Positions 13,460 to 64,000 of a DNA stretch of 64,000 nucleotides are shown here, piece by piece. The stretch lies in assembly GCA_973895155.1 (NCBI GenBank), contig OZ316896.1, forward strand, positions 7,449,278-7,513,277, given 5' to 3'. The translations under genes were made by a program, and so were the position numbers. This DNA comes from Marsupella aquatica (taxonomy: Eukaryota > Plantae > Marchantiophyta). The notes under the pieces were generated by a model that saw only the letters and a list, made by a program, of their open reading frames with translations, was not told where the DNA came from and did no database searches. Every line of letters begins with the position of its first letter. Within the stretch, counting starts at the first letter, position 1.

Positions 13460-14255
13460 TGGTCTAGGATGGTCCTAGTCCAAGTTTGGATTCAGATGTG
13501 GACTAGGATCATCCGAGTCCAACTTTGCATTGGGATCATCCGAGTCCAACTTTGGATTGGGATGGTCCGAGTCCAAGTTTAAACTTGGATGGTCCAAGTC
13601 CTAGTTTGGATTGGGATGGTCCGAGTCCAAGTTTGGACTTGGATGGTCCAAGTCCTAGTTTGGATTGGGATGGTCCGAGTCCAAGTTTGGATTAGGATGG
13701 TTCAAGTCCAACTTTGGATTGGGATGGTCCGAGTCCAAGTTTGGACTTGGATGGTCCAAGTCCTAGTTTGGATTGGGATGGTCTGAGTCCAAGTTTGGAT
13801 TAGGATGGTCCGAGTCCAACTTTGGATTGGGATGGTCCGAGTCCAAGTTTGGACTTGGATGGTCCAAGTCCTAGTTTGGATTGGGATGGTCCGAGTCCAA
13901 GTTTGGATTGGGATGGTCCTAGTCCAACTTTGGACTGGGATGGTCCCAGTCCAAATCCAGAATCGGAGGATCATACTCCAAATCTAGACTCGGAGGATTC
14001 CAGTCCAAATCCGGACTCGGATGGTCCCAATCCAAATCCATAATCGGAGGATCGTAGTCCAAATCTAGACTCAGAGGATTGCAGTCCAAATCCGGACTTG
14101 GATGGTCCCGGTCAAAATCCGGACTCGGATGGTCCTAGTCCAAATCCAGAATCAGAGGATCGTAGTCCAAATCCGGACTTGGATGGTCCCGGTCCAAATC
14201 CGGAATTGAAGGATCGTAGTCCAAATCCAGACTTTGAGGATCGCAGTCTGAATCA
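13460..14255. repeat. 27-bp quasi-palindromic minisatellite upstream of the transposase (probable 5' intron)
   Basis: Same unit family (TTGGATTGGGATGGTCCGAGTCCAA). Bracketed by a donor-like AAG|GTGAGT near 13257 and an acceptor TGCAG at 14300. Confidence 0.85.
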
Positions 14256-20509: not shown

Positions 20510-20650
20510 GCCTAAGCTGAAGCCGTGCTTACCTAAGCTAAGCTGAAGCCGTGCTTACCTGAGCTAAGCTGAAGCCGTGCTGACCTAAGCTAAGCTGAAG
20601 CCGTGCTGACCTGAGCTAAGCTGAAGCCGTGCTCACATAAGCTAAGCCGT
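20510..20650. repeat. 24-bp tandem repeat within LTR B
   Basis: CTAAGCTGAAGCCGTGCT(T/G)ACCT(A/G)AG units; fewer units in LTR B2 at about 38365-38440. Confidence 0.85.
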
Positions 20651-29900: not shown

Positions 29901-31622
29901 AGGGAGAAGGACGAGATGCTCGAACAGACTTACGCCAAGATGAACCAGATGGAGTCTGTCATCATTGCAGAGCTCGACAAGGAGCTAAGAGCAACCCAGG
30001 AGGAGAGGACTACCTTGAAACAAGAACGGGAGGAAGCCCAGAAGGAACTAGAGGAGGCATGCAAGGACCTGGATGAGACCCAGGAGGAGTTGGAGGAAAT
30101 CACGAGGAAGATGGAGAACCTCCAGTGGCGGGCCGACAACCAAACGGAGCGGCTGAAGAAACAAGCCGCAGTATTTAAGTGCTTGTCTTCATCAGGCCCA
30201 ACTCCAATTGGGGCAACCAAGTTACTAGGAGTGGTACTGGCCGAAGAAAAAGCCGCGCCACCTGCACCAGTGCCGGAAGTAAGTGGGAAGGGGAAGGGAC
30301 CAGCTGCCGAACCAGAAAAGAAGAAGAAGCGGAAACCTTCAGGGTCAAGGAGTAATCCGACTCCACAAGCCGTGGTGACCAAGGAGGTAGAACCAGCACC
30401 ATCCTCCGACATGAATACGGCAATAGATCCCGCTATCATCACAGGTGGGGGTGGTGCGGCCCAAGCCGAACTACTCAGTAATGAGGCCGGTATCCCAGAT
30501 CCGCCTCTTGAGCAGGCCGGGGAGACCCAAGCCGTGGCTGAGGCCGTAACCGGTTCCCGAGCCGATGCCGACGCCGATGGTGGACCCAGTCAGGCCGATG
30601 GAGAGTTGACTCAGTCAAGGGCAGGTAATCTGTCAGAGAATGAACCTACGGCAGTGGCTGAGGAGGAAGCATTGGGGGCGTCCATTAAGGATCCACCACC
30701 GGTGTCGTGACGGTGCAAGGGCGCCGTTCCTTTTAGGGAGGGCGGACGTGGAGGGAGGAGGCGTGAGTGGGCAGGGCGGGCGCTGATCTCCAAGTTTAGG
30801 ATTAGGATCAGGACCAGGAGCGGCCCTGACACTTAGCTTAGTGGGATTGCGGTTCCACTGGTAAGAGCAACACTTGTGCTCCTGCCTTGCTGTACATAGG
30901 TAGATTCGGGCAAGTAGATTACTATTAAGTAGATTAGGCTTACGATGCAAAGAATGGCGGATCCACTACCAGGATAAGTACCTGGGCAGCGGGGAGCTCA
31001 GGGCCTCTTCTTTAGCAAGTTTTTAGTTTGCACCAGCCGGGCTGGGATCAAGTAGTACGAGAAGCTCTCGATTAGTCATACAGTGACCCTTGTGTATATT
31101 CATGTTTCCTCATGCCTAAGAGCTGAATAGAGTTGGCCTCACGGCTTAGTTCGCAGAACTTGTGTATGAGATGTACTGTTTGTATGGCAAGTGCATGGTA
31201 TGACTCAGTCAGAATGAGTCATTTTGCTATTTGTGTGTCGCATTAACTTGTGTGAAGAGTGCCCACATCAACCAAAAGGAAGGAAAGTAAGCAGGGGAGT
31301 GAGAGTTGGATGTGTCGAGCTGAGAGAGGTCTTAGCGGCTTAACCAAGCCTATTGGGGATCATTCCGGCGGCGGAATCCAAACATACCTAACAAGACGGA
31401 GGGGAAGACAGGGGAAGGCCTAGATTAGGCCGGCTACATATCTCATGACCCGATGAAGGATCTGTCCAGTATATGTGTGTAAAATGTTAATAGTAGTAGT
31501 AGAAGGTTAGCAGCGTCCCATGCCGCTAAGCCGCGGAAACGGCCTCGCCAAGCGCGAAACCTGCAGGAATCGGCTTGAGCTGGGGGGTTTCTTGGGTTTA
31601 GGGAGCCATGGGACGCACCACA
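26960..31622 (+). mobile_element. Element A copy 2 (4663 bp) with intact ORF
   Basis: TGTGATGC...GCACCACA termini; 5-bp TSD ACGTG at 26955-26959 and 31623-31627. Confidence 0.93.
27075..30710 (+). CDS. Element A protein: plant-transposon (PMD/Transposase_32-like) domain, acidic/proline linker, long coiled coil, basic KKKKRK motif
   Basis: Uninterrupted 1211-codon ORF with GLEAFVRLPW..LLEFVGSW..IYGKDFYLTPKVIAEVFGLP. No gag, protease, RT, RNase H, integrase or DDE motifs are recognisable. The true start may be the downstream MSNVNQ ATG. Confidence 0.8.
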   Translation: MEPGPRPEVRTLWVKTRLGLGRVKRRRLGRINGKKDRQRRGVRSACRRWWLICEHELGRRLREANYCQLLRQALGERVDTDDRPKEGMSNVNQAAHFWGCLFERATKYIKTYEDEESERAARERQELARLWELQKTAFLGGELIKDEFLWTPTSNQLDDLLFCKDSVVGIREAIKNCNDIHWELKGSTERWTQATVLGETSTAAEMKRKGAVNDEATPAKRTRSAAPNKPAEQQSRRQGEVEEEEVDPIKAIPTKDDTWKGWAATLPVEVQLHFAREEDACFTAMQTKKYQGFMAGSGLEAFVRLPWLKPEVPESDLLEFVGSWEPETNCTRIYGKDFYLTPKVIAEVFGLPIGNKTKVDTRKTLPDKEFRSFPGPSTKNGFFRNTCTNPHIGEMIDFLRVTMHCNLPRAEIGKAQVYLAERPDPSRDYNGYLLNQLKKILKEEQQVIGMGSVSRLGYHMPLLCRYARGQTFAPVLPLQVRAPEEAPTPRPLAEKPQPPVSPTIEQVFRPRKEDLPMQQPGMQSLLKLLENEKKSASATTTATATMQDTTIEVGLHRLTRENPFAGDKERIRPESKPGVRMYVGISSSESEAELPEAPTDEEEREKPDGQEVEEAVEDCSHDNSGYGSDHHVPGVRTCGRFVPTLPRVVRGDPNQQSSPESPPPDVAPPSFDGIKQTVQEFQEQIKQEEEAALAREKDLPGGDWPEDIRRLAKKGSKPLATIEEIRKTAWEQRPQWAMPITSTYSTYAKNRAMEYGEMCGELALGIFGEELEVGPFFHREQLEKHQLEEAMALERSKKDEVIRRLRRMEAEIEDLRAAKKAQDELRIKRHELNIMQGQLDTAQADNQNIKDKLTQTQGELADTIKEREKWKQELKNTEEAHITANSRAMAETQRKEWALKGELEKIRGALEQKEAELGKSYQGIMALQQELASLTASFKADLREKDEMLEQTYAKMNQMESVIIAELDKELRATQEERTTLKQEREEAQKELEEACKDLDETQEELEEITRKMENLQWRADNQTERLKKQAAVFKCLSSSGPTPIGATKLLGVVLAEEKAAPPAPVPEVSGKGKGPAAEPEKKKKRKPSGSRSNPTPQAVVTKEVEPAPSSDMNTAIDPAIITGGGGAAQAELLSNEAGIPDPPLEQAGETQAVAEAVTGSRADADADGGPSQADGELTQSRAGNLSENEPTAVAEEEALGASIKDPPPVS

Positions 31623-31889
31623 ACGTGCGACAAAGTATAGGGCCATTTAATTGGGTTTGGCGGAAGACTTCCAAAGATTCGTGGAAGAACAATAGGGTCC
31701 GTTTTAATTCTTGGGCCGCTTTAAAGAACAATAGGCATTTATTAAATGGGACATATTCCACAAAAGATGTCCATGAAAGTTAGGGTTGCTCGTAGTAGTT
31801 TACATGGGACACATGGCATGTTTTGATTGGTCCAAGTGTCATAATATAATTGGTACACATGTAGGGTACTGTAGTCAAAATTGGTTTTG

Positions 31890-35973: not shown

Positions 35974-38900
35974 ATGACCAACGAGGATGGAGAGCTCCAA
36001 TTGTGTACTGATGCAATCCGCAAAACTTGGGATGACATTTGGGTGCTGCAGAATGAGGAGTTTGAACGCGAATGTGATTCCCATGTATCTTTCCACGTCC
36101 TCAAAGACAAGATGTTCTTTGTTTTTGATGGAAACCATCGACTGTATTCTTGGACTCAACTTGCAGAATAGCATCCGAAAGATATTAAGTACCATCCACG
36201 AGTTGTTTGCAAGATTTTTAAGGGTGATAAAAACTCATTTGTTCAGATCGAGTCGGCAATGCACGCATTAATAGGTGCAATTTCTAAGTATAACATTTTC
36301 CTGAAATTTGTGTTTCAGTTAATCACTTTCTGCTAGCAATCTTGCTAACATGAAAATTCTCTGGCAGGTTGACACAATGTCACGTTGAGAACTCCTGGGT
36401 TTTGGAGGCCGAACGGGTCCAAAAGATTCTGAACAACAACTTGTCAGTTTACAAGGATATCATCGATTGTCACGCGATTGACATGGGTCTTAACACCAAA
36501 AACGTCACTATGGGTGCCAAAACCATCTCCTTGTACCTGAGGATCACGAAGGGATGTTGTGAAGGCCGGTAAACACCAATTTATGCCCTTAACACCAGAC
36601 TATCATAGCAAGACTTTATCACACATCACCCAAGCTCAATCCCAAGGAACCAAGGTTGGGGATCAGATTTGCGTTCATGATAGTTCTGGTGAGAAGGGGT
36701 CTTCATATCGGGCCCGTACACACAAGGCCTAGCGCTACGGTGCGCATAGGTCTATACGTATGCTTACTGTCATAGGTATGTTTCTATTCCGCCACCGGAA
36801 TGTACCCATAAACCAGTGACTCCTTACTGATTCCCGACTTAGGGACTTCTAAGCCATTGCCCCACCACTATGCCATTCCACTCTCAGCAATCAGAGCTAT
36901 GACAGTCCTCACCCAGCCCACTTCAAAGGAACCTGTACACCTCTCAGTGGCGCTGCTAGTCCCATCATACACTCAGATTGCCTCACACACACACACATCC
37001 ATGAGAGAAATGAGGCCTGAGAGGAAAACTCAATTAGATTCAAAGATGTGCACAATAGTTCACTGAGAACACTTGATCCGAACACTAGGCCCTAAGGTTG
37101 TCTCCTCCAGATTGCGACGTGCTTGCCCCGCAAGCCCTGTGCTTGCCATGCAAGCTCAATCCTGAACCTGAGCCCAACTCACTCCAGATTGCGACGGCAG
37201 ATTGGACTCGAACCAATCCCGTACTTGCCTTGCAAACTCAATCCTGAACTCAACCTCCTTCACTGCACTTCATTCTTGGGGGCACATACAGATCTCACAC
37301 CTCCAATTCAAAACGTCAAGTTACGCATGCATAGTTGACTCAACTTCAAAGCTGGTACCAGGCCTAACAACGATCTATCCCAGACTGCAATGAGGCCCGG
37401 CCTCACGCTTGCCCTGCAAGCTCAGTTCTGGCCATAAATCCCTTAGTGCTCTCCACCAGACAAAGGCCGGGACTCCCCATGGATCACGTAGCCTTGCTAG
37501 ACTAAATTGTAAATGCTCCTCCTGCTGCCCCTCAATCAGTATCTCAGCCTCCCTAATGTGCTCACCGAAAATCACATTGAAATCCTCCCCACAGTTTACA
37601 ATCACCAACACATCACCTATCACCAAGGCTCTGTATCGGGGGAAAAGAACCCAGTTGTGGTGCCTACTAGAAAGAGCCACAATCCAGCTTGCAAACCTGG
37701 CCAACTGTTGCTGTGAAGCGTGGCTGATTATTCCCTGAGTAATAGCACAACCAAGCTCTCCCCAACACACAGCTTCCAAGCTCAGCCTTCCTTGCACAGA
37801 GCTCCTCCCTGCTGCTCAATCTACGTGAGATCACACAACTGAAGTCCCCCCTTGCCTCTACCGGGGGGCTGCTCTGTATACTCTCATATTGAGCCCAAAT
37901 GGGTGGATACTACGCTGCTGGAGCCCCATCCCAGCCCTAACAGAGCCGCCACTATCTCTAACTACTGAACCCTAACTCGCAACTTTATTTCTATCTCGAA
38001 TTGGCTATGTACTTCAGATTTGGCCCTCCTCCATGGTTTTTGCGAGCTTGCGCCTCCTCTCCCGATTTCTCTATTCAACCATTTGCTGCGTGGATAGCAA
38101 CATTGGAAGCGGCTTGAGCTCCTCTTTCCAACGAGGTCAATTATAGCCAATTTGGTCAAATACCCAGAAAGTTATGGCCCCGTAACCGAGAGGGGGTACT
38201 CACTGCTATGCTAACCCGAGTTCGGCTAACCTACCTATCCTATCTAACCCGAGTAGAGCTAACCCGTGGTCTCGGGTTAGGCCGCTACCCGCTACCCGCT
38301 ACCCGCTATCCGCTATCCGAGCCTAAGCTGAGCCCGAACCCGAGCTTACCTATGCTAACCTGAGGCCGCGCTGACCTGAGCTAAGCTGAAGCCGTGCTGA
38401 CCTGAGCTAAGCTGAAACCGTGCTCACATAAGCTAAGCCGTGGTCGAGCTTGGGTTAACCCGAAACTGAAGCCGAATCCGCTAATTTCGGCCACAAGTTA
38501 ACCCATCACACTAATCAGGTCGTATCTTTCTTAATACACCTCCATTTCTCAAGTGTTTTATATCGATTTTACTCGCCTTGACCAGATCTTTCCAATGCTC
38601 TTTACAGATCCGGATTTGGTGACATATTGAAAGAGATATGGTTGTCGACCACCCGCAACATAGATTTTATTTCCCTACTCTTAACGCCATGATTGCCCTT
38701 ATTCTTGCCATCTTGCTAATTGTTATGCAATATCAATAGCTACTCCTTGCATACAACAACCTACTTAATCAGATTACAAAATAAGGACCATGTCATTGGC
38801 GTCACATCGATGCTGAGAATTACAAACTTTTCCAGCAGAAGATGGCAAACGTGCGGAAGGCAGCTTGGTATTCCAAAAACATGACGCTGGATGCCTGCAC

Positions 38901-42399: not shown

Positions 42400-43490
42400 A
42401 GTCCTTCACTAAGGGTTGGAATCCTCATTGGAAGACTACCAGCAAAGCTTAAGGACTAAAGTCCATCGGGGAGGAGTACTACAATCATTTGGTCAAAGCG
42501 CTTCACTCGTTGACAAAGGACTAGTCTATAGACGTAACACAACCCAGGACTATAGTCCTTGACAGAGGATTAAAGTCCTTATCAAAGGACTACATAGTCC
42601 TCGGATGAGGACTAAAGACAGTCCTCGACAAAGGAGTAAAGTACTTCAATAAGGACTACAATCCTTGAATAACGACTATAGTCCTTTACAAAGGAGTCAA
42701 GTCCTTAAGTAAGTACTATAGTCCTTTACAAAGGAGTAAACACTTGAGTAAGGACTATAGTCCTTTACAAAGGACTACAAGTTCTTGAAAGAATAAGGAC
42801 TATAGTCCTTTACGAAAGCCTGTACCAAGGAGTAAAGTCCAAGGACTATTAGTAGTCCTGTTAAAAGGAGTAAAGTCCTTGAGAAAGGACTATAGTCCTT
42901 TAAAAAGGAGTAAAGTCCTTGGGGAAGGACTATAGTCCTTTACAAAGTAGTAAAGTCCTTTAGTAAGGACTATTAATAGTCCTTCACAAAGGAGTAAAGT
43001 CCTTGAGAAAGGACTACAGTCCTTTACAAAGTAGTAAAGTCCTTTAGGAAGGACTATTAATAGTCCTTCACAAAGGAATAAAGTCCTTGAGAAAGGACTA
43101 TAGTTCTTGACAAAGTAGTAAAGTCCTTGAGTAAGGACTATAGTCCTTTACAAAGTAGTAAAGTCCTTGAGTAAGGACTATTAATAGTCCTTCACAAAGG
43201 AGTGAAGTCCTTTCAGAAAGTCCTTTACAAAGTAGTAACTTAGTCCTTTGATAAGGACTATATAGTCCTGGGCAAAGGAGTACAGTCCTTTGTCTAAGGG
43301 CTACAGTCCTTTTCCCAGGACCATATAGTCCTGGGCAAAGGAGTAGAGTCCTTTGCTAAGGACTATATCGTCCTTGATGCTTAGTGAAGCCCTTGGCTAA
43401 GGAGTATAGTTTTTATCCAAGGAGTAAAGTCCTTTGACGCAGGACTTCACTGCTATCCATACTCCTGAGTCAAGGACTATATAGTCCTTA
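42400..43490. repeat. AAGGACT/AGTCCTT palindromic repeat array
   Basis: Dozens of AAGGACTATAGTCCTT and GGAGTAAAGTCCTT units. The motif resumes after the CACTA element at about 53800-53910. Confidence 0.88.
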
Positions 43491-44224
43491 GTGATTAACC
43501 ACTAGTACATTTTAGGCATTTTTCCGATACTAAAAACACGCGTTTCTCAACGCGCCCGATACTAAACACAACGGAAAACTTCCGATACTACCCAAATCGG
43601 ACATTATTATCCGATATGTTTTGTATCGAAAACTTTATCCAATACCCATCATATCGGACAATGTCCAAAACATCCTGTATCGCAAATTGAGAGCCGACAT
43701 GTTTTTCAGACGTCCGATAATAATAGTATCGAAAGCTAATTCCGATAGGTTTGGTTTCGGACATTTACCGATACAAAATGTATCGGACATATGTTTGCGA
43801 TACTATTTACAACGGAAATCATTTGCAAAGGCTGAGGGATCGGTTACTATCCGTTGAAATTTCTATCGGACCCCTCCTCGGCTGCGGGCTTAAGCATCCG
43901 ATCTGTGGAGTATCGGATAGTGGCTTCCAATTTTTATAGTATCGGAAAATCCGATACTTTGAGGATGGGAAGGGGTTTTTTGCTTTGGCAGTACTGATGT
44001 GTGTCCGATATGTTTCCGATGGTATTTGAATGGGACATATGGGACTTTAGTGTTTTACAATGTATAGGTTGCATGGAATTAATGGATTCAGATATGGGGC
44101 ATACTTTAAGCAATATATATGTATACTGCATGAAATTGTGGACAATTAGAAAAATCATAGAATGCCGATAAAAAGATAGTGCTGGTAAAAATATACATGA
44201 AGATGGTGGGGTCTACAATTTATA

Positions 44225-47200
44225 CTAACTCGTGGGGGGTATGTCTCTATCTTCCACTACAACTACGTTGGGTCTCTCTTGGACTATGGACCGTGATCTG
44301 GGAATATACGGCATGACAATGGACCACTCGGGGTCATTGGGATAGGGTAGGTAAAAGCATTGCTCAAGGTGATGTGGGAAGGCAAAGGGATCTGAGGACC
44401 TCCAGTTGGAACTGATGACACTATTTGCGGATGTCTTCAAACGAGTAAAACCGCATGCATCATCTTCACAAGTACGATTGTGGCCTACAAGATTCATCTT
44501 GAACCATTTGCACTTGAATACCACTTCCTCCAAAGTAGTATGTGCATGGTACTTCACTGTTAGGATCTCCTCAATCTTCCCATAATGGGCCACGGTGGAG
44601 CGAATGGGATTCATGTCTGACATGCTACTCTGGGAATCTTGGGTGAACCAACCCATCACCCCACAATCCTGTGTAGCTGCCCTCTTCTCATCAAGTCGTT
44701 CCACACAAAAATGTCTCCCCTTTGACCACATGGCAGTCCGAGTCGTGACTATAAGTAGTGGACCATGAATCAAGGTACGAAGTTTATCTGTCACGTTTGG
44801 GTAGTGTAATACACTCTCCCCGGTACCCACCAGGGCATCCACTTCTAACAACTTCTCCTTCATGTATGGGTGAAACTTGGGAAATAACCGTGGGCGTCGA
44901 CTGTTTTGCTTCTCCTCCTCATAAAATGTTGTCCACTCCCCGACAACCTCGGGTGAGTTATACAACATAAATGTTGTGAGCTGTAAACGCTCTGCTGAGC
45001 CTATGAGACGCTCTCCAGATGCCCCAGTGAGTCTATCATCCTCGTAGTCAGCCTCTCGTGCCGCCTCATCTATCCATCCCCTAGGAGCACTAGGATCTAG
45101 TGTGGCAACTATGTTTGTACAGTAAAACATACTCTCTGCTCCAAGATGACGCTCCGCAATGCTACCTTCCACCCTAGCGCGATTAAAGACATATGACTTC
45201 ATCACCCCCCTATAACGCTCTACCCAATACATCCATCGACAATGTACTGGGCCTGCAATTGCAACCTCGCGCACTAAATGTATGAGGAAATGAACCTGAC
45301 CATCAAAGAATGAGGGAGGGAGTGCCTTCTCCAACTTGCAGACAACCTCTACTCCAAATATCTCCATAGCAGCAATGTCATCCTCCTGTACCTCCTTTTG
45401 ACATACCCATCTTAAGAGCTTACCCAATGACCAAAGGGCATCACGAAGTTCCTCACTACCCATTCCAATAATAGCAACTGGAAGAACATGTTCAAGCAAC
45501 CGATGATAATCATGTGTCTTCAAGAAAGATGGCCATTTTGGAGAATCCTCCCCCCCAAATGCCTTCCTAAGATTGGTACCATAACCTGTGGGAAACTCAA
45601 TGCGCTCTGCCCTTGTCAAAACCCAAGGAGGATGGATGCTAGGGGGAGCACCAGGGGGGTCCAAAGATGGCCAAAAACCCAAAAGACCATGCATCCCCAT
45701 CTCCTCACAACTTTCTCTCCAATTGTTATTTTTCTCCCCATATAGATGGCGAATCAATGATTTTCCCACATTCCCCTCAATGTGCATAGGGTCTAACAAG
45801 TGATTAATGGGCATATCTGACCAATATGACAATTGTGACAATGCAGACAAACGGGTCATGCCACATCTGAATAATGGTAATGGATCACTCGGATCCTGAA
45901 CTCTCCCCCATACCTCTCTCCAATATGTTGGATCCTTCCGCTGAGGTTGAGGACGAATATCAGGTTGGCCCTCATCAGTATCATAAAGGAATGGATCACT
46001 CCTCCAAGGATGGTCTGGTGGAAGATATTTAGTATGACCAATGTAAACAATTTTTTGCAGAGTACTTGACTTGGGCCTGGCCACCCCCTCCAAATCGGGT
46101 CCACATGTAGAGCAAGCTCGATAGCCTGATGTTTGCAATCCAGAAACATATCCAAACCCTGCCCAGTGCATAGAAAACACATTAATAAAATAAGGTTCAT
46201 CAAGGCAAAAATTTGCATAATTGCAATTAAATACAAGGTTTAGGTACTAGAGGAAATAAGGGTTTACCATACCTGGTAAATCATGCATGGTCCACATAAG
46301 GATGGCCTTTAGAGTAAATACGCGGGATAAACCTCCTGTGTTGTGACGTCCATCATAACAATCCACTCCTCTCCACAGTTGTATCAACTCATCAATCAAT
46401 GGCTGCAAGTACACATCAATCTTTTTAACTTGCTTAGGACCCGGAATAATCATGGAGAGTAGTAGGTGACCTTTCTTCATGGCCATCCAAGGAGGGATGT
46501 TGTAGTTTGTCAACACTACTGGCCACACCGAATATGGTTTGGCTTTTCCTGTCAATGCAAAAGGGCTGATACCGTCTGCTGCCAAGCCTAGTCGAACATG
46601 TCGTGGGTCAATTTTGAACTCTCCCCATCTATCCTCTACAAATCGATTGGCAGGAGAGTCAACCATCATCCGCATGGCACTAGAGGGTACAGCCATATCA
46701 GAACGATTTTGTGAGTGCCATACCATCATCTCAGCCAACTCTGCACATCGGAATTGATGTCGCAATCGAGGGATAAGAGGAAAGTACCTCATAACCTTTT
46801 GCGGTACCTTCCCCGTCAACATGTCATCACGGTACCATGGCTTCTGACATTTAGGACATGTAGTGGCATTTTCATGCTCACCCCTAAAAAGAATGCAATC
46901 ATCCACACATGCATGTATCACCTCATACTTCAGGCCAATGGACCTCAACACCTGTTTAGCCTCTTTCCAAGAGGCTGGCAATGCATTGCCTACTGGCAAA
47001 ATACGATCATGCAAGGTACGGAAAACATCATCCAAAAGTAGATTGCTTGCCCCATGTCTTTGCTGCAAGTTGAGCAACAACATTATTGATGAGAGCCGAG
47101 ATAACCTACTCCCCTTGAATATGCGAGTACGGGCATGACGTTGCGCCTCCTCCCATTGCTTGTCTTGGGACCCCCTAGACGGATGTGGATGACTAGTCCT

Positions 47201-47440
47201 TTCATGGGTTGAACCAATGTCCTCCAAACCAATGTCATCGTGATCATCATAGAATTGGTCCATGAGCTCATCCATGGCCCTCTCCTCATCAAGATGGTCT
47301 TGGATAGGATCATCACCATCATGTCGTACCCCATCCTCTTGCCTTTGCGGTTCATGCCCACGGTTGGCCACCATGGCCTCAACAAGGTGTTGTCGCATAG
47401 CTTGTGATATTACCCCAATATCAGGCGTTACATATTGATT
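44225..47440 (-). CDS. tnpD: CACTA TnpD-type transposase (Transposase_21, DUF4218, DUF4216 regions); exons 47440-46273 and 46158-44225
   Basis: Motifs IHACVDDCILF, RYFPLIPRL, RLGLAADG, YSVWPVVLTNYNIPPW, WTMHDLPG|FGYVSG (phase-1 intron 46159-46272), LDPMHIEGN, LKTHDYH and GPVHCRWMYWVER. Confidence 0.92.
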
Positions 47441-47562
47441 CTATCATACAACATCAATTAATTAATCTCATCAACACATGCACTGTTGAACAACATCATT
47501 CTCATGTAAACATGTAAAATAAACTGACATATATATATAAAATATGTAAGTCCAAGAAACTA

Positions 47563-48519
47563 TCATGGACGACAACGCAAGGACAATTTTGGTGCATCCC
47601 ACTCATACTCACACAATAACTCCTCACCAGCTCTAATGGTCCTAACAGCTACTGTCATGATATGGTCGTCCATATGTTTCACAAAATATGGATGTCTAGG
47701 TGGACCAAACATTTGAATCCACTCTACATTAGCCTCCAAACCTCTATCTCTACCTGTGGTACTATTGATGTACCCTGCTAAATTACCGTTCCGAATAGGG
47801 TCACCATCAATCATCCGGCAATGCCACGGCCTAGTGAAGACCTCATCCGGGTCTGAGTCCATCCTCAATGCATACACCCCCCAACTTGGGTGTTGACGCA
47901 ACAAAATATTCCAACTCTTGGAGTTATATACAGCCCCAATGTAAGGAAAGAGGTGCTCTCCATCATAACCACGTCTCCATGGCTTTGGAGGGACCACAAT
48001 ATCCTCCAAAGCAAAAAGACCATATCCTATATCAGGACCAATAGAGGATGCCTTCACTATCCAAGGGCGACCCCATATTTGAACTGGTTCATCTGTAGGA
48101 ATAAAATCTGGAAATTTGAAGAGACTTGGAGAAAAGTCCTTCAAAACTTTGGCAGCCCTACCAGTGAGATAGGATAGTCCAAACCTGCCCTCAATGCAAA
48201 TATAATCTACGTTACCGGCTGGTTGATCACTAGTACCTAACACCTCCTCTCGTTTGTCTACCTGGTCCAGTGGTCCATACTGCCGTCTACGTCTACCAGA
48301 TCGTGGTCGTGTACGTAGGACCCTAGTAGTCACAACCTCGGGCCGAGAGACCGGTTCCCCCTCTACATGCTCATGTGTGGGCACGAGAGTGGGGATAGGA
48401 GCAGGTGGGCTAAGAGGCATCTGGGCAGGAGGAACTGCAAGCAACTCCCTGGCCCTTGCTAGAAACCCTTCCAACCACACAGCTTCAGGAACCAAAGGAG
48501 GTGGGGGCCTATGAGGCAC
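47563..48519 (-). CDS. SET-domain (lysine methyltransferase-like) exon inside the CACTA element
   Basis: 318 codons with SSIGPDIGYGLFALEDI, PYIGAV, IDGDPIRNGNLAGYINST and VAVRTIRAGEELLCEY: the ordered SET motifs, with NS in place of NH. Preceded by acceptor TAG| at 48520. Confidence 0.85.
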   Translation of the reverse strand: MPHRPPPPLVPEAVWLEGFLARARELLAVPPAQMPLSPPAPIPTLVPTHEHVEGEPVSRPEVVTTRVLRTRPRSGRRRRQYGPLDQVDKREEVLGTSDQPAGNVDYICIEGRFGLSYLTGRAAKVLKDFSPSLFKFPDFIPTDEPVQIWGRPWIVKASSIGPDIGYGLFALEDIVVPPKPWRRGYDGEHLFPYIGAVYNSKSWNILLRQHPSWGVYALRMDSDPDEVFTRPWHCRMIDGDPIRNGNLAGYINSTTGRDRGLEANVEWIQMFGPPRHPYFVKHMDDHIMTVAVRTIRAGEELLCEYEWDAPKLSLRCRP

Positions 48520-48657
48520 CTATTTCAACACACGTACAATGGTTTTACACAAATCAATAAATTAAGTAGTGCCAGGATGTAAATGAAAGATAATTAAGCA
48601 ATACCCTAAATTGGAATGCATACATGGAATGAATAGGGGACATAAACATATCTGTAC

Positions 48658-48918
48658 CTGGCTAGGCAAATACCCTGGCATATCACCCTCGTGGCGGCCA
48701 TAGTTCTCGATGTGCTCACAAGTCTCCCACGCATGTCGAACCACAAGTCCCTTACATCTCACACACCAGCAAGGTATGGGTCCTAGTGGAGCACGAGGAC
48801 GATCTGGAGGAGGGGGTGGAGGAACCTCCCCCTCAGATGAGCTTGTGTCTGAGTCTGAATTTGACGTGGAACTATTAGAAGTAGACATCTGCATGCATGA
48901 AGTACACTCTGAATTCAT
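48658..48918 (-). CDS. First coding exon of the CACTA element (transposase-associated zinc-finger domain)
   Basis: PCWCVRCKG..ETCEHIENYG resembles the CxCxxC...H...G transposase-associated domain. Ends in a phase-0 donor CAG|GTACAG at 48657. Start uncertain. Confidence 0.7.
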
Positions 48919-49206
48919 GTAAGCTGCATAAAAGAAGACAAGTGTTGGAGTATCAAAATAGAATTAATTAATGCATGAGATACAAAAGTCCTGTTGTACC
49001 TCAATGATACCCGCGCTTTGCCAGCCTACTGTGTCATATTTTCTACACACAAGGTGTGGGACATCCAAAATCTCTGCATATATGGGTGAGCATTTTGCTA
49101 ATGAGCATACTAATCTGTAAGTGTGAAAGAGTGTAGGAAGAACACACCACATATAAAAAAATTCCAACATACAAATTAAGTGTAAATGATGCGGCTCGTG
49201 AAGTGG

Positions 49207-49923
49207 GGACATCATACCTCCTGGATGCGCGGTCTCACACTATGCATAGTGCATTGTCCAAAACAAAACCTATCTACCCCCTCACAAACATTGAACCACT
49301 CCTCCAAACGCAAGGTACTGTGCATCAAATCCAACACAACCATTAGCCTAGCTAATATATGGAGGTTGAACCTTATCCTAAGAAAAGGTGTAACCTTATC
49401 CTAGTAAAACCCCATAACCCTAAGCCCATAAACCCCTCCAAAGAAATGATCCAAATAGCTTTCACCAAGAAATGGTTCGTACAAAAACTTCTTGTAGTAT
49501 TTTGTCTATCATATATCATAGTATTGAGTTCCCATCACCACAACCATCCCTAAACTTGCAAGGAACTTGCAAGAGGACATCATACCTCCTGGATGCACAG
49601 TTTCATGCATAGTGCATTGTCCAAAATCGAAACCTCCCTACCCCCTCAAAAAAAGTTAACCACCCCTCCAAAAGCAAGGTACTACACATCAAATCCAAAC
49701 ACAAAGATTAGCCTAATGAAGGGGTTTAATATTATCCTAACAAAAGGTAGAATGTTATACTAATAGAACCTCTACGTACACCCATAATCCCCTATAAAGA
49801 AATGAAACAAAAGGCTTTCACCCGAAAATGGTTCATACAAAAACTTCTTGTAGTATTTTCTTGATCCTATATTACATATCATAGTATTGAGTTCCCATCA
49901 CCACAACGTAACCACCCCTAAAA
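49207..49923. repeat. ~350-bp diverged direct duplication inside the CACTA element
   Basis: GGACATCATACCTCCTGGATGC...GAGTTCCCATCACCACAAC occurs at 49207-49554 and 49575-49923. Confidence 0.8.
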
Positions 49924-50674
49924 CACCAAGACTCTATACACAATTGCATCATTAATTAGAGCCCAATATATTAAGCATGCAAGACCATAGCTTATCAAAA
50001 AAATTATGAAGTCCGGTACAAACCCCAAAATTTGTTCTCCGCAACAAAGAAACTTGCAAGAGGTCCCTCTACATGCATGACACGTTCACTGTCCCGTTCA
50101 CATATGTAGAGCCCTACAAAACGCGGATTCAAATATGAAAGCAAATAATAACTCCAACCATGTGCCCTTACCCCATACAAAACCTAAATATCCTAACTTA
50201 TACTCTAAACCCTCCAATCCCATACCCAACCCAAATTCAAAACATTATATTGGACCCCCTTTGGGAAAGCCAAGAGGTATCCGATATAACTTCATGAGGG
50301 GTCCGATGCAATAGGAAACGGGCCACACTTGGTAAATACACGGCCACAAGAAAAGGACGAGGGGTCCGAAGCAGATAGTTTCAGAAAGTCCGATTGCGTG
50401 TCCGATACCTTTGGTTTTGCAAAGTCTGAAACAGAAAGAATCGGAAGCAGCAGGTTTTGTTTCGGAAAAAAGAACCGATGCAGGTGCGAAGACCCGCGCG
50501 TCGGGCCCCGTTTCGCACTTGGTGTTTTTCAAATTTTTTGAAGCTGGATCAAGGAGGAGAGCTTGAAGGAGGAGGAGAGATGGAGGGGGCGGGGGATCAG
50601 GTGGTGGGGGAGACGAAGGGGGATCAGGTGGTGGTGGAGAGCAAGGGGGACCGTCCCAGCCATACAATGAAGTT

Positions 50675-52930
50675 ATGAGGGACATTTTTGTGGCCAAGGC
50701 AGGGCTGAGTGTGGAGGACGCAGAGAGAGTAGTCCCACTCCTCCAAACGCTGATTGATGCCTCTCGGCGTGAGGCAGAGAAGACTGCTGCTGCAAGCATT
50801 GCAAGTGAGAAGGAGGCAAAGAAGAGGAAGAAAGAGGCAAAGAGAGGCAAGGGGGATGCAGAGGAGACACAGTCTCCAAGAAAATGAGAGAAAAAGCTTT
50901 GAAAAGAAGCTAGGGCAATTGAGAAGGTGCGATTGGAGGAGCAGAGGCGAAAGGAGGCAGAGAGAGCTCTCAGGCCTGAGCTAGCTCTCAATTCGGGTGG
51001 TGGTCCATTGCCTAAGAGCTACCATATATTCCGAAGCCAATTCAAGCAGGTGCTGAGGGCCAATTTGGGGCCACTGGATTACTGGGGCAAGAAGAAGGAG
51101 GAAGAGAGATTGAGAATCAGAGAGCAGGTGAAGGAACGGTTCAGGAACGGGGCCTACATTGATGACAGGTTCCTAAACAAACGAATTTCAGCATCACTCT
51201 CAGACATGCGCAATCATCAGCGAGAGAAATTCAGAAAGTACCTTGGAGATATGGCAGTGGATGCAGAGGTGATCAGGGAGGAGGGTTGTCCAGACAATGT
51301 TTCCCCGGATGAGTGGGCGTCTTGGCTTGAGGAGGAACTCTCAGTCCGTGCCTGGCTGAAAAGAAGACATTGGGACAACGAAATTAGGCTGGCAGAGGAG
51401 AAACGAAAGGCTGGGGAGAATGTTGATATCCTCCCCCTTCAACAGAACCTGCAACAATGGGCAGCTCAGGCAGCAAGACTCCCCAAACCACCAAGGCACA
51501 TCATAGCAGCATTGGAGAGAGTGTAGGGGAGGCCAACCATCACTCATTGGATGGGGCAAGGCGGCTCCAATCGATTGAAGGCTGAGTTTGTAAGTGCCCT
51601 CCCTCTCCTCCCCACCTCGACTCCCTGATCACCTGACTCCTCGCACGAAGAATGAGTTGTTTGTGCCTTATGTCTTTTGTTTAAACCCTTTGCAAAACTC
51701 ATTTTTGCTCTCGGGCCTGTTCTTTCCGATACTCATCTGATAGGTTTTGCATCGGAAGCAACATCGGACACCGTGTCATGCCATTTTTCTTGTTACGCAT
51801 CCGATAGACGTCCGATGCAGGATGTATCGGACTTTGCATCGGACCCCTCGGCATAACATTTAAATTTTTGAATGAACGTACTTAATGTTAATTTTTTACT
51901 AGGGTAGAGTATAAGTTAGGGTGAACTATGGTTTAAGGTTACATTAGGGCTATGTAGGGTGGCTTGGTTTAGGGTAGGGCACGCTAATACTAGATTTGAT
52001 ATTAACCTGGCCTCTATGGTTTGGATCTTTAAATTTCAGGAGCGGGAGTATGGTCGCCCTATTGCGCCGTTGGAGAGGAATTTGGCAAAGACGGATGGAC
52101 CCCGCGCTCTAAAGCGCCACCTTGAGGATGAGTTGGGAGAGGTAAGTGTTCACCCTAGGTTGATATAATGTTTAAGGTTGTCATGAATTTGTTAGAGTTA
52201 TGGTCGGGACCATTCATTCTAATTGCAATTAAACCCTATTGCACAGGATGAGGAGGGGTCTGGGTCAGAGGAGTTGGACTCAGATTCTGAGCAGGATGCT
52301 AAGGCAGGGTTGGGGAGGGTGCCCACAGTCACCCCTACTCCTCAGGTCCGAGGTATTGTTGCCCCATCTGGTGCCGTTGCCCCATCAGCAGGGAGGGGTG
52401 GGTCACATGCTGCTGATGGTGTGGGCTCCCATCACTCTGGAGCATCACGGGGTGCGGGGCCCAGGCACTCAGGGGGTAGTAGAGGTGATGGCATGGGACG
52501 AGGCGATCGCGTAGGAGTATCTGGTGCAGGTGGCCCTTCCCGACGAGGTAGTGGCGACGTGCCGGATGGTGGATCTAGAGGGCGCGCACCATCTCGTGAG
52601 TCTGGTGGGAGTACAGCACGACATGGGCCACCCACAGGATCTGTCGGTGCACCATCCCATCACTCTAGCAGGTCTGCGGGAGGAGCTGAGGCATCCTTTC
52701 ACTCTGCCGTGTCGGGGGTTGGTGGGACATCTACCTTGCCTGACCACCCTAGCGGTGCATCTAGTGGGTCAGGGTCTAGGCCTGCATCAGGCCAACCCAT
52801 GCCATCTGGTGAGCAGGTGGCTGCCACGGTTGTGGGCAGCCAGAGGGAGGAGGGCTCTCATGATGCTAGACCTGTACCACCCCTTCGTTCTCGCCCAAAG
52901 AAGAAGAAGGGACGCAACACACCTTTTTAG
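50675..52930 (+). pseudogene. TnpA/Ptta-like second CACTA gene; exons 50675-51589, 52040-52141, 52247-52930; three in-frame stops
   Basis: All splice junctions are phase-0 GT-AG. GCPDNVSPDEW, THWMGQGG and EREYGRP resemble Transposase_24-type proteins. Stops TGA (50885), TGA (50900), TAG (51524). Confidence 0.6.
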
Positions 52931-54080
52931 AGGTTAGTTGCATTTAGGTGGCCGGGTATCTAGTGCTAGACAGCTTTGATTAGACACTCACTAGGAGGTA
53001 CCTTGTATATAGCTCAGTGTAGTCTCTAGTCAAAGCTCTCTTTACATCTTCTATCGTGCCATCACGACCAGGATGGGTCTACCCAGTAGGCCTAATCCAT
53101 TTTGTACATATTAGGGTGATCCCCTTTTTGAATATGATATTTTGACCTCGTGTTTATAGCATTATCTTTGGTTCCTAATTGGTGTATGTCACCTTCAACC
53201 CTAAACCAATACCCAAACCCCCAAAAAACCACCCATGAAACCCTGTATTCCACTCCCAGAACATTTGATAATCCGTTGCAAGTCCGTTACCATCCGTATC
53301 GGTAATATAGCAGTGTCCGATGCTGCTGCCTTCGAACTTTCCCATCCCCAACGCATCGGACCCCTCCTTGAGGGTTCCCATCTTAAACATATCGGATAGT
53401 CCGATACAAAAACTAACGCACTTTCCATTATTATAAATAACGCAATGTCCGATAAAAATTACTTCACAAATTGCCATATCAAATATATCGGACATCCCGA
53501 TGTAAATAGTATCGGACATAGGAAATCGTCGTGTGCCGTCGCGTGTTAATTATCCGATTCATTTTACATCGGACATAAAATATCCGTAACACATTACAAC
53601 GGAACATCCATTGTCCAAAATATCAGAAAGTCCGATGGAAGTCCGATGGTCGATATGCGATGGTTTACGCATCGCAAAGTGCGTTGGGAATAGCATCGGA
53701 TGATAGAAATTTTTGCGTCAATTTTCCTCAAGGGATCCGATGTAAATCCTATCGAATAAAGGCCCGAAAATGTACTAGTGAACTAGATAGTACTTTGCCA
53801 AGGACTCAACTCGTTTCTCATGCCAGACTTCACTTGACAAGGATTCAACAGTGCTTCCTGAAGGCCTAGATAGTCAGTCCTGAAGGAATTTTCCTGGAAC
53901 AAAGTCCTTCCTGCTAGGCTATATAGGACGTCAGGTCTCACAAAATCATTCAGATCCTACCTTAAAGAAAAAAACTAGGCGGTTACAGCAGAGCACAATG
54001 GCTAAAGCACACATGAAGGAAAACTACTTCTCAACATCTGCAGATCGTATTATGAGTTAAAATCAAAAGTGGCAAATCAA

Positions 54081-59498: not shown

Positions 59499-60110
59499 TT
59501 CAGCCTAATCATGGAGCATCAAATACGTCGGGGTGTTCAACTTCCTTTACCAATCAAAGGCCGCCCACCCTCATAGAATCAAATTCACCTACGTCCCAGG
59601 GATCCAATTTCAATTCATGACTTAGAACATACCTCACAAAATCATCAAATTTAATCTCTAGACTTGCTACCCTTCCTGATCAAGTCCAATGCAACTTCTC
59701 CTCTTAAAAAAGAAAAGCCCTGGGAAAAGCCTTTCAAACTGGGAACTCCCTAAATTGTGTCGATCATCAAATACTCTATCTAGCTAGTGTCCTTGCTTCT
59801 CCAGTCCAAAGCAACTTCTCCTCTTCAAAACAAAAGCAAATCAATTTAATTTAATGTACCTCAGTTCTGTTTATGATAGCTGCCAATACTAATTTGATTG
59901 ACTGCTTGACCTTCCTCTCTATGCGCTTTCTTGAAGTTCCTATTCGGATTCAAATGTACGTCGGCAGCAAAGCTTCAGACCCTAATAAATCTGCAGCTTC
60001 ATTGAACCTCTTTTTTGCACTCATTCCCCATGCTCTGAAGGCAACACAGATTTATCAGAGCATGGATCTCACATCATACCACGGATCTTGCTCTTTCAAT
60101 CAATTTAACT

Positions 60111-63100
60111 TGTGGTGCGTCCCATGGCTCCCTAAACCCAAGAAACCCCTCTGCTCAAGCCAATTCCCGCAGGTTTCGCTCTTGGCGAGGCCGATTTTGC
60201 GGCTTAGCGGCATGGGACGCTGCTAACTTCCCTCTACTACTATGGCTATCAACATTTTACTCACATATACTGGACAGATCCTTCATCGGGTCATGAGATA
60301 TGTAGCCGGCCTATTCTAGGCCTTCCTTTGTCCTCCCGGTTTCCCTTTAGGTATGTTTGGATTCCGCCGCCGTAATGATCCCCAACTGGCTTGGGTAAGC
60401 CGCTAAGACCTCTCTCAGCTCGACACATCCAACTCTTACTACCTTGCTTACTCCCTTCTTGGTTGATGTGGGCAATCTTCAAACAAGTTAATGCGACACA
60501 CAAATAGCAAAATGGCTCATTATGACTGAGTTATATCATGCTTTTGCCATACAAACAGTACTTCTCATACACAAGATCTGCGAACTAAGCCGTGAGGCCA
60601 ACTCTATTCATCTCTTAAGTATGAGGAAACATGAATATACACAAGGGTCACAGTATAACTAACCGAGAGCTTCTTTAACTACTTGATCCCAGCCTTGCTG
60701 GTGCACTAAAAACTTGCTAAGGAAGAAGGCCTTGAACTCCCCGCTGCCCAGGCTCGTGCCCAGGTACTTATCCTGGTAGTGGATCCGCCTAATTCCTTGC
60801 AGCGTAAGCCTAATCTACCTAACTATAATCTATCTATGTACAACGAGGCAGGAGCACAAGTGTTGCTCTTACCAGTGGATCCGCAATCCCACTAAGCTAA
60901 GTGTCAGGGCCGCCCCTTGGTCCTGATCCTAATTCTAAACTTGGAGATCTGAGCCCGCCCTGCCCACTCACGCCTCCTCCCTCCACGTCCGCCCTCCTTA
61001 AAAGGAGCGGCCCCCCACCACCGTCATGGCAGCGGTGTCTGGTCCTCAATGGACGCCCCCAACACTTCCTCCGCAGCCACTACCATAGGTCCGTCCTCTA
61101 ACAGATTACCTGCTCCTGACCGAGTCAACTCTCCATCGGCCTGACTAGGTCCACCCTCGGCTTCGGCCTCAGCATCGGCCACGGCCTCCCGGGCATGTTC
61201 TAGTGATGGATCCGGTACCCCGGCTTCATCCCCGAGTATCCTGGCCCCAGCTTCATCATCCTTGCCTTCTAGGGCAGTTGGATCCTCTATTGTGACCTTG
61301 CCTGAGGTTGGTGTTGGGTTTACCTCCTTGGTCACGATGGCTTGAGGAGCCGTATTACTCCCTGACCCAGAAGGTTTCCGCTTCTTCTTCTTCTTTGGTT
61401 CGGCAACTGGCCCCTTCCCCTTGCCACTTACCTCCGGCACTGGTGCAAGTGTCTTGGCTTGTCCTTCGGCGAGTACTACACCAGGTAACTTGGTTGCCCC
61501 AATTGGAGTTGGTCCTGAGGAAGCCAAGCACTTAAATACTGCGGCCTGTTTCTTTAGCCGCTCCGTTTGGTTGTCGGCTTGCCGCTGTAAGTTCTCCATC
61601 TTCCGTGTGCTTTCCTCCAACTCCTCCTGCAATTCATCCAGGTCCTTGCGCGCCTCCTCTCGCTCCTTATGGGCTTCCTCCAATTCCTTCTTTAAGGTCG
61701 CCCTCTCCTCCTGGGTTGCTCTCAGCTCCTTGTCGAGCTCCGTAATGACCTCAGACTCCATTTTATTCATCTTGGCATAAGTCTGGTCAAGCTGGTCATC
61801 TTTCTCGCGGAGGTCGGCCTTGAAGCTGGCCGTCATGGATACAAGCTCCTACCGCAGCATGATAATCGCCTGATAGGATTTCCCTAACTCGGCCTCCTTC
61901 TGCTCAAGGGCTCCGCGGATATCCTCGAGTTCCCCCTTCAGCGCCCTTTCCCTTCTCTGAGTTTCCGCCATGGCCCAATTGTTGGCTGCTATATGGGCCT
62001 CCTATGCGTCTCTCAGCTCTTGCTTCCACTTCTCCTTCTCCTTGATCGAATTGGCCAGATCACATTGGGTCCAAGTAAGTTTATCCTTGATAATCTGATT
62101 ATCAGACTGCGCGCTATCCAATTGCCCTTGCATGATGTTGAGCTCATGCCGCTTAATCCGCAACTCATCTTGGGCTTTCTTGGACGCCTTCAGGTCTTCT
62201 ACCTCGGCTTCCCTTGCCCTAAGCCGATGGATGACCTCGTCCTTCTTGCTTCTTTCCAAAGCCATCGCTTCTTCTAATCGGTGCTTCTCCAATATTTCCC
62301 TCTGGAAAAAAGGTCCCTGCTCCAACTCCTCCCCAAAGATGCCGAGCGCAAGTTCCCCACACATCTCCCCGTACTCCATGGCTCGTTCTTTAGCATAGGC
62401 AGAGTGAGCAGAAGTCATCGGCATCATCCACCGCAGCCTTTGTTCCCAGGCAGCCTTGTGAATTTCTTCTATCGTGGCTGGCGGGTTGCTTCATTTTTCT
62501 GCAAGCCGTCGGATGTCCTCTGGCCATTCTCCTCCTGGTAAATCCTTCTCCCTTGCCAGGGCTGCCTCCTCTTCCTCCCTGAGTCATTCCTAAAACTCTT
62601 GTGCCGTCTGTTTTATGCCGTCAAAACTTGGGGGAGCAACATCTGGTGGGGGAGACTCGGGGCTGCTCTGCTGGGTCGGGTCCCCTTGAACTACTCTTGG
62701 AAGAGTGGGAATGAATTTGCCACAGGTCCTTATTCCTGGAACATGATGGTCCGACCCGTAGCCGGAGTCATCATTGTCGTAGCCTTCTACCGCCTCCTCC
62801 CCGGCTTGGACTAGCGGCTCCCCCCGCTGCTATCCTGGTCCTGCCGTGAACACAACCCCACAGATCACGGGTCCTGGTTCCTCCGGCTTCCACATTGATC
62901 TCATCTTCTCCCTGTCGTGACCAGGGGCCTTGGGCTGCTTCTCCTCGGCTTCGGGACTTGAAGCTCCTACATACATTCGGACTCCCGGCTCGTGTTCCGG
63001 CCTCCTTCTCTCCTTGGCCCCGGTAAAGGGGTTTTCCCTAGTAAGTTGGCTAAGGCCAACTTCGGAAGCAGTATTCTATGATGGCCCCATTGCCATTGCC

Positions 63101-63950
63101 GTTCTCCTTTCCTTCTCCAGCAACTTCAGCAGATTTTGCATGCCTGGTTGCTGCATTGGCAAGTCCTCCTTCCTCGGCCTAAACACCTGCTCGATTGTAG
63201 GATTGTCGGGCTGGGTCAGTTTCTCTGTTGTCGGCCTTGGTTCCGGAACCTCCTCTGGTGCTCTCACCTGCAGGGGCAATACCGGGGAAAATATCTGGCT
63301 TCGGGCATACGGGCACAACAGCGGCATGTGATAACCAAGTCAGGACACGCTTCCCATGCCGATCAGCAGCTGTTCCTCCTTCAAGATCTTCTTTAGTTGG
63401 GTGAGGAGGTACCCGTTGTAGTCTCGGGTTGGGTCTGGCATCTCTGCTAGATAGACCTGTGCCTTGCCAATCTCTGCCCTCGGCAAGTTACAATGCATGG
63501 TCACCCGCAAGAAATCGATCATTTCTCGTATGTGCGGATTTCTGCAGGTGTTTTGGAAGAAGCCATTCTTTGTTGATGGCCCTGGAAACGACTGGAACTC
63601 CTTGTCTGGCAAGGTCTTCCTGGTATCTACTTTGGTCTTATTGCCCATCGGCAAGCCAAACACTTCGGCAATCACCCGAGGAGTGAGATAGAAATCCTTC
63701 CCATACACCCTTGTGGAATTGGTCTCGGGCTCCCATGATCCCACGAATTCCAATAAGTCTGAATCCGGCACCTCCGGCTTCAGCCATGGTAACTTTACGA
63801 ATGCTTCCAAGCTGGATCCGGCCATGAAGCCCTGGTATTTCCGAGTGTGCATAGCCATAAAGCATGCATCCTCCTCCCGTGCAAAGTGTAATTGCACCTC
63901 CTCAGGGAGGGTCGCCGCCCAGCCTTTCCAGGTGTCATCTCTTGTTGGAA
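60111..63950 (-). mobile_element. Element A copy 3, inverted, ORF decayed, cut off at 63950
   Basis: Begins TGTGGTGCGTCCC (reverse complement of the A terminus). ORF fragments 63340-63966, 63076-63327, 62002-62427 and 61024-61836 match the A protein. Similarity ends at 63950, where a GGGTATGA.. MITE-like sequence starts. Confidence 0.9.
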
Positions 63951-64000
63951 CGGGTATGATAGCCATGACAGAAAACAGAAAACCTGTTACCAGGATTTTT

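Follow-up and report, generated by a model that had tools for sequence, protein, structure and literature searches.

A SET-domain exon nested in the transposase gene of bryophyte CACTA elements, with predicted alternative splicing from a common first exon

Transposable elements that carry a SET-domain gene have been described before, in several superfamilies and hosts. In the red alga Bostrychia, the accessory gene PAG2 of Plavaka elements, which belong to EnSpm/CACTA, is described as a stable SET cargo with a proposed role in chromatin modulation (bioRxiv 10.1101/2025.02.11.637652). The locus analyzed here likewise has SET cargo in a DNA transposon of the EnSpm superfamily, so that the initial annotation of this DNA went too far in knowing of no described SET cargo in CACTA elements. 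According to the same source, however, PAG2 forms a gene of its own in a three-gene cassette, with SET fused to an adenine DNA methylase. By a comparison of descriptions, the SET sequence here instead lies within the predicted first intron of the transposase gene, likely behind a common first exon, without a methylase partner and in TnpD-type elements of land plants. Transposon-borne SET lysine methyltransferase genes are also reported from the HarbingerS and MuDR elements of oomycetes (PMC12730594) and from Helentrons (PMC4067079), but the superfamilies and hosts differ, SET in Helentrons is encoded by an intron-less ORF of its own, and the common-exon design was not found in the accessible text of these reports. 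The accessible parts of PMC12730594 and bioRxiv 10.1101/2025.02.11.637652 contained no functional tests of the transposon SET genes of oomycetes and red algae, and those of PMC11982613 and PMC4158355 contained no SET cargo. Our literature search turned up no bryophyte CACTA element described as having a SET exon within its transposase gene; Repbase Reports, as well as preprint supplements and subscription papers, may contain such a description. Transposon-borne SET is already known, and it is the nested common-exon design, with its predicted splicing, that is unusual.

A second group of precedents concerns the products of the transcription unit. Maize En/Spm and Arabidopsis EN/SPM3 are reported to make TnpA and TnpD through alternative splicing (PMC13547354; bioRxiv 10.64898/2026.08.24.746577). 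The likeness is that one CACTA transcription unit gives a transposase and a regulatory protein by alternative splicing, with domains split across exons. The second En/Spm product, as described, is a DNA-binding HTH protein derived from the transposase, whereas the predicted splicing at our locus would give a captured enzyme fold, and a further accessory gene lies here head-to-head on the opposite strand. In the VANDAL anti-silencing system, the MuDR factor VANC binds DNA and causes DNA methylation to be lost. Both VANC and, as proposed, the SET exon product are transposon proteins directed at chromatin of their own family, but VANC is neither a SET enzyme nor a splice form of a transposase. 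SETMAR (Metnase) is a domesticated single host gene that encodes one SET-transposase fusion protein. There too SET and transposase sequences are joined by splicing, whereas here the SET sequence moves with a multicopy element and its conserved stop would make SET and transposase alternative products.

The window, which is the whole 64,000-nt stretch of Marsupella aquatica DNA analyzed here, contains a complete CACTA (EnSpm) element of 10,281 bp at 43500..53780. The minus strand carries exon 1, the SET exon and two TnpD exons, and the accessory gene starts at 50580 on the opposite strand. For comparison we used sibling copies in sequencing runs and 21 loci from a metagenome scan (designated L; 41-49% identical in SET). 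Of these loci, 10 have exon 1 upstream, 11 have TnpD downstream and 5 have the divergent accessory gene; L015, L017 and L021 are cut SET fragments without neighbors, and most of the remaining loci end too soon. L007 and L009 have common sequence from a CACTA terminus onward and differ in their flanks. The features of the element are the following.

43500..43513, plus strand: left terminal inverted repeat, 14 bp, starting with CACTA and identical to the right one; TCCGA-type subterminal repeats lie next to it
44225..46158, minus strand: TnpD exon 3, with the rest of Transposase_21, DUF4218 and DUF4216, and the DPMH and WVER motifs
46159..46272, minus strand: predicted TnpD intron, 114 nt, phase 1; sibling joint 46160 to 46270
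46273..47440, minus strand: TnpD exon 2, with Transposase_21 (E=2.3e-40); LAADG holds the first catalytic Asp
47441..47562, minus strand: AT-rich (74%) stretch after the SET stop, predicted to be the SET 3' UTR and the last part of the long intron, up to and including the TnpD acceptor
47563..48519, minus strand: SET exon, 318 codons plus stop, opening with GTG at 48519 and ending with TGA at 47565-47563
48520..48657, minus strand: predicted short intron to the SET acceptor, 138 nt, 68% AT; siblings diverge between 48533 and 48655
48658..48888, minus strand: exon 1, 77 codons, with a Ser-rich start, a Pro-rich linker, a C-x-C-x2-C-x13-H motif and a phase-0 donor at its end
48889..48999, minus strand: predicted 5' intron, 111 nt, GT..AG, abutting the exon 1 ATG; sibling joint 48894 to 48997
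50580..52930, plus strand: accessory gene, divergent to the transposase gene; homologous ORF at the same place in 5 of the 21 loci
53767..53780, minus strand: right terminal inverted repeat, 14 bp

Assignment of the element to CACTA/EnSpm is based on terminal repeats that start with CACTA, a 3-bp target duplication (AAC at 43497-43499 and 53781-53783), a TnpD with DDE motifs, and subterminal repeats. The TCCGA-type subterminal motifs are approximately tenfold denser near both element ends than inside (15 per kb near the end versus 1.3 per kb inside). An empty-site joint from 43496 to 53781, with 3 letters assignable to either side, was found in four of four sequencing runs over the element. 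The insertion site is a multicopy tandem repeat, with repeat families D2, D4 and D6 in the flanks. Because the flank is a multicopy repeat (depth 135-863), the empty site fixes the ends of the element and was rejected as proof of an insertion polymorphism. The surroundings of the element (42529-43480 and 53781-53900) consist of an AAGGACT tandem array with a unit of about 20 bp, the empty form of which is multicopy; this array is probably the subterminal repeat of another element. Elsewhere in the window there are three copies (two direct, one inverted) of a GC-rich, strand-skewed repeat of several kb that are 81-94% alike (672-5341, 27042-31623 and 60092-63960), probably a retroelement family. 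Also in the window, a 27-bp unit with internal inverted symmetry forms two arrays that face each other across about 1 kb (11834-12349 and 13391-14230), and there are two copies of a repeat of about 2 kb that are 94-97% identical and lie about 17.8 kb apart (18693-20844 and 36525-38635).

The transposase predicted by joining exon 1 to TnpD is 1110 aa long, has no internal stop, and contains the LAADG, DPMH and WVER motifs. Its DUF4216 domain scores 30.1 bits, just below the cut-off of 30.6. Two introns found in L002 and L004 are missing from the window's TnpD (46158-44225), which at one place is also about 9 codons shorter than that of L004. Exon 1, SET and TnpD are all open in the window, and the accessory gene is broken there: three in-frame stops interrupt it, and a G-run is one base short of the length seen in close siblings. 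The accessory protein gave no match to a Pfam family. It is labeled TnpA-like, after the Transposase_24/HTH accessory protein of CACTA elements, by position only. TnpA-like proteins are reported only from flowering plants (bioRxiv 10.64898/2026.08.24.746577), and for this reason the bryophyte accessory protein may be a separate kind.

Exon 1 ends in CAG at 48658, followed by the donor GT at 48657. Its start had been placed at 48918, but ATG 48888 is more likely because a CAG acceptor lies just before it and sibling conservation begins only at 48894; the predicted intron at 48889..48999 probably sits in the untranslated leader. Residues C40, C42, C45 and H59 are invariant in the family. The Cys/His motif seen in the initial annotation is thus present, but the term zinc finger is a reading of the motif only. 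Both the position of the exon and its Cys/His spacing are as expected for the transposase-associated domain (TAD, PF13963). The PF13963 profile itself reached E=0.017 in one of six family exons and E=0.031 in protein P0127, both below the cut-off, and did not match the window's exon. In angiosperm CACTA elements the order of domains in ORF1 is given as TAD, Transposase_21, DUF4218 and DUF4216 (PMC8978399). Judged by position and spacing, exon 1 is likely a divergent TAD; read in this way, TnpD would need exon 1, which favors the long splice. A search with the window's exon 1 alone as the query did not find a longer protein.

The SET exon is composed of a conserved N-terminal stretch, a Pro/Arg linker, a family-specific pre-SET part and a SET core with GxG, YxG, NS and GEELxxxY motifs. 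An open frame of 318 codons was reached in none of 5000 Markov shuffles of the 1217-nt stretch, for which the median longest frame was 92. Identity of the domain, for which a profile or structural check had been advised, was borne out by Pfam PF00856 (SET), which scored 25.9 bits against a cut-off of 22.4 (E=1.3e-5), and by a fold that matches SET and PR domains on a weak model. The model was folded from 32 sequences and has a pLDDT of 50, compared to 34 for the single-sequence fold. When this weak model was used with Foldseek, all matches listed were SET or PR domains, the best at E=1.2e-3 and none at or below 0.001. With VIA, the top 29 rows were SET or PR domains, the best being the EZH2 SET domain (Z 5.8, rmsd 4.0, 110 aligned), and the SET domain of SETMAR appeared in row 23. 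The VIA Z-scores obtained with the weak model for the histone KMT classes EZH2, SET1/MLL, SUV39/SUVH, SET2/NSD, SET8 and PRDM lie within about 1-2 of one another, and no class stands out. No Pfam match to pre-SET, CXC, AWS or post-SET was found in proteins of the SET family, PDB sequence searches gave nothing significant (best match to a SET protein E=0.07), and searches of phage records and viral contigs found no relatives. Atlas feature matches to bacterial and phage SET clusters were treated as leads only and not as evidence of origin.

The layout of splice sites places two acceptors behind a single donor. The positions first proposed for the donor (48657), the acceptors (48520 and 47441) and the SET stop (47563) were confirmed, as were phase-0 joins that leave open products of 395 and 1110 aa. 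The SET acceptor AG is at 48521-48520, with the exon running from 48519 (GTG), and the TnpD acceptor AG is at 47442-47441, with the exon running from 47440 (AAT). The predicted long intron, from exon 1 to TnpD, is 1217 nt. Exon 1 joined to SET is predicted to give 395 aa with no internal stop, and both predicted joins are in phase 0. The exon 1 donor is in phase 0 in the window and in 7 loci matched by pattern. In the same 7 loci the SET acceptor is present, in frame 0 in five of them and shifted in the decayed L005, with L016 outside the frame count. The TnpD acceptor (ATAG/AAT) occurs in the window and in 14 of the 21 loci, and is in frame 0 in 7 of 8 that are testable. Siblings in the sequencing runs retain both acceptors and lose the interiors of the introns (joints 48530/48533 to 48655 and 47454/47458 to 47542). 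No exact intron-skipping joint was found among the joints listed in seven sequencing runs, which are contigs, none on record as RNA.

Protein records provide comparative support for the short splice. The predicted point of joining between exon 1 and SET is used in Calypogeia fissa gene models (CAM6082608.1 and CAM6127501.1; P0001, P0019, P0035 and P0037) and also in those of six Sphagnum species (one cluster, that of P0032, has 360 members). In Riccia sorocarpa gene models the same Cys/His motif stands ahead of SET. These gene models are predictions, and the bias of one predictor may be common to them. In P0085, from a 2141-nt Logan contig, a single frame covers both SET and the Cys/His motif (hhalign 94%, E=1.5e-7). 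Of the other Logan proteins, P0005 begins at the GTG of the exon and P0036 reads into the intron, from which we infer that the Logan gene caller is intron-blind and that P0085 would represent a spliced transcript or an intron-less copy. For the long splice, one search in which 7982 candidates were scored found exon 1 joined directly to TnpD in none of 16 proteins.

Our main reading, to which we assign a probability of roughly 0.55, is that one pre-mRNA is spliced either from exon 1 to the SET exon, giving a predicted 395-aa Cys/His-SET lysine methyltransferase, or past the SET exon, giving the 1110-aa transposase. One promoter between the head-to-head genes would drive this pre-mRNA. Use of the near acceptor by the exon 1 donor would lead to SET, followed by formation of a 3' end in the AT-rich tail, and use of the far acceptor would lead to the transposase. 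Considered separately, splicing of exon 1 to TnpD is very likely, and splicing of exon 1 to SET with 3' end formation in the AT-rich tail is likely. The original proposal of one promoter and two acceptors is supported by the conserved sites and phases, by the exon 1-SET gene models and by P0085; alternative splicing between the two acceptors is still a prediction with comparative support.

The sequence that precedes the SET acceptor bears on how the SET frame would be expressed. The last 55 nt of the short intron are identical at 47-48 of 55 positions (85-87%) between L001 and L007/L008/L009, which amounts to one independent comparison; this is the level of exon 1 (84%), and other parts of the intron are 46-59% identical, approximately the level of shuffled sequence. 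The conserved stretch (L001:940-994; L007:9742-9796) ends in ATG-TAA-TAG, in frame with the SET exon. No RNA structure was found in the short intron (z -1.2 to +0.9). Such a stretch could fit a regulated acceptor, but it could also fit an internal promoter, in which case the SET frame would be a nested stand-alone gene transcribed from within the intron and exon 1 would belong to the transposase only. A gene of this kind is consistent with the Sphagnum-like clade, where the SET exon has a Met at codon 4-6 and where the P0032 cluster also contains 263-aa models. In the window's clade, however, there is no conserved Met near the start of the exon (the first Met is at codon 34, 26, 32 or 80), though the first 30 codons are conserved, indicating that the exon needs an upstream start. 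The SET acceptor and its phase 0 are moreover retained in both deep clades, and the single frame of P0085 includes the Cys/His motif. We therefore consider a stand-alone SET gene unlikely.

If exon 1 is spliced to SET as in our main reading, there is the additional question of what the protein does. The canonical NH(S/C)xxPN motif was not found in matched members of the SET family, which for this reason is not filed under a canonical class. Because 77 of 86 motif matches carry NS in place of NH, and none carries NH, we read NS as a property of the family and not as decay. The GxG motif and the Asn are kept across the family, and the last Tyr is present in 58 of 58 motif matches. The Tyr of YxG is found in 49 of 62 matches and is replaced by Phe in the other 13. 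The residue two before the last Tyr is small or aliphatic in 57 of 58 matches and, by the Phe/Tyr switch that bears on the degree of lysine methylation, would not restrict the enzyme to mono-methylation.

PRDM9 offers a guide to the consequences of the missing His. Only the Asn of its NH motif is reported to be needed for cofactor binding, and the enzyme is active with NC; it methylates H3K4 and H3K36, and PR-type enzymes are also without the His (PMC9861158). The SET family resembles PRDM9, as described there, in keeping the Asn, losing the His, having an insertion before the second Asn and keeping the last Tyr, but it has no KRAB domain or C2H2 array and no specific structural closeness to PRDM9 (Z 3.4). 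By this analogy PRDM9 is a precedent for activity and not a family assignment. The initial annotation regarded activity as uncertain because of NS, and this concern is weakened by the prevalence of NS in the family and by the PRDM9 precedent. We predict that the SET exon product has SAM-dependent activity, which we consider fairly likely. An alternative is that the exon is spliced as predicted but its protein is not a histone writer. It would then be a reader or scaffold with weak catalysis, or its substrates would be proteins of the element itself or a host silencing factor. This would be in keeping with the absence of NH from every matched family member, the Phe in place of the YxG Tyr, the failure to find a close solved relative and the presence of long family-specific insertions. 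Conservation of the Asn, the last Tyr and GxG throughout the family argues against it, as does the methylation of histones by PRDM9 without the His, and we regard this alternative too as improbable.

The region past the SET stop allows a further arrangement, with SET as an internal cassette exon. Splicing to TnpD would start from a weak donor 20-50 nt past the stop, and the resulting two-frame mRNA would make SET and shut off full-length transposase. After the SET stop, siblings are conserved to 47542 (about 20 nt beyond the stop) and again from 47458, an AT/GT(A/C) site lies 21-47 nt past the stop in the window, L001, L002 and L009, and the distance from there to the TnpD acceptor, 88-172 nt, is that of an intron. 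The donor sites are nevertheless weak, absent in L005 and L011 and unaligned between subfamilies, and the TGTA could equally be a 3'-end signal, making the cassette a poor prospect by comparison with the terminal SET exon of the main reading. We rejected a full fusion of exon 1, SET and TnpD. A conserved stop closes SET 3-13 codons beyond the last Tyr, there is no phase-0 internal donor common to the window and the loci, and the gene models that run from SET into TnpD (P0031, P0057, P0068, P0128, P0143 and P0161) exit the exon at differing points.

The distribution of the SET exon indicates that it is part of the element. A profile of the SET family matched 136 representative proteins at E<=0.001, at least one of which (P0194) is a chance match. 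Named relatives come from Calypogeia fissa, six species of Sphagnum and Riccia sorocarpa, and the closest named protein belongs to the liverwort Calypogeia fissa (72% identity). Two clades (100/100), with Calypogeia in both, are resolved in a tree of 22 SET cores, and the window holds an intact copy from the second deep clade. More distant members of NS type with unrelated N-termini were also found (P0144, P0212, P0190, P0207 and P0148, the first two from Calypogeia); these may be cargo of other elements or copies captured by the host. The SET cores of liverwort proteins P0018/P0019/P0037 and peat moss proteins P0032/P0045-P0048 (Calypogeia versus Sphagnum) are 76-84% identical, and the synonymous divergence between L001 and L002 is only 0.34. 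Between such distant hosts this similarity is high, a hint of horizontal transfer.

The SET exon is under purifying selection. The comparison of dN/dS across copies that had been called for gave 0.28-0.32 for the SET of L001 versus four other loci. Changes private to single copies have a dN/dS of 1.1 and are neutral. In the window's own family, 18 synonymous and 12 replacement changes were counted among the 30 exon differences listed, these coming from the best supported 40 of 509 differences. Values of 0.34-0.35 for the window versus the other clade were dropped, dS being near saturation. Absence or degeneration of the exon in sibling elements had been named as grounds for giving up the proposal; the exon is present family-wide, with stops in the SET core of 5 of 13 loci. 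Stops and neutral private changes are as expected for decaying copies of a selected gene. These data indicate that the SET exon is a part of the element, conserved, and a family-wide trait of moss and liverwort elements. CACTA elements are reported often to carry gene fragments (PMC8978399) and many copies here are decayed, but passive capture of a host-gene fragment that does nothing for the element is largely refuted: the exon occupies the same position in both deep clades and in three named genera, is under purifying selection and belongs to a large family.

Under our main reading, the choice of acceptor would switch the element between a chromatin modifier and a transposase. The element would benefit from the SET form, most plausibly through a mark that this form places on the element's chromatin to counter silencing. 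In the hosts of this family, transposons are reported to be silenced by H3K27me3 or H3K9me2 (bioRxiv 10.1101/2022.10.24.513474). The least certain step of the model, which we put forward tentatively, is that the common N-terminal domain would bring the enzyme to the chromatin or the transpososome of the element, where it would write a mark that protects from silencing. More doubtful still is the broadest form of the proposal, that in the CACTA elements of bryophytes an alternative exon of the transposase gene has long encoded a PRDM-like histone methyltransferase, with splice choice alternating between transposase and a chromatin writer that has the same N-terminal targeting domain. This would be a self-targeted enzymatic form of anti-silencing in land plants, with possible horizontal transfer between liverworts and peat mosses.

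These elements place transposon-borne SET in land plants, where it is under selection and reaches a high copy number. The 395-aa protein allows a direct test of whether histone marks are written by a transposon for itself. If splicing is as predicted, the locus would be a clean case of a transposase gene that gains an enzyme by insertion of an exon behind a common first exon. Transposon cargo likely accounts for many of the proteins annotated as 'SET domain-containing' in Sphagnum, Calypogeia and Riccia, which would inflate the counts of chromatin genes in these hosts.
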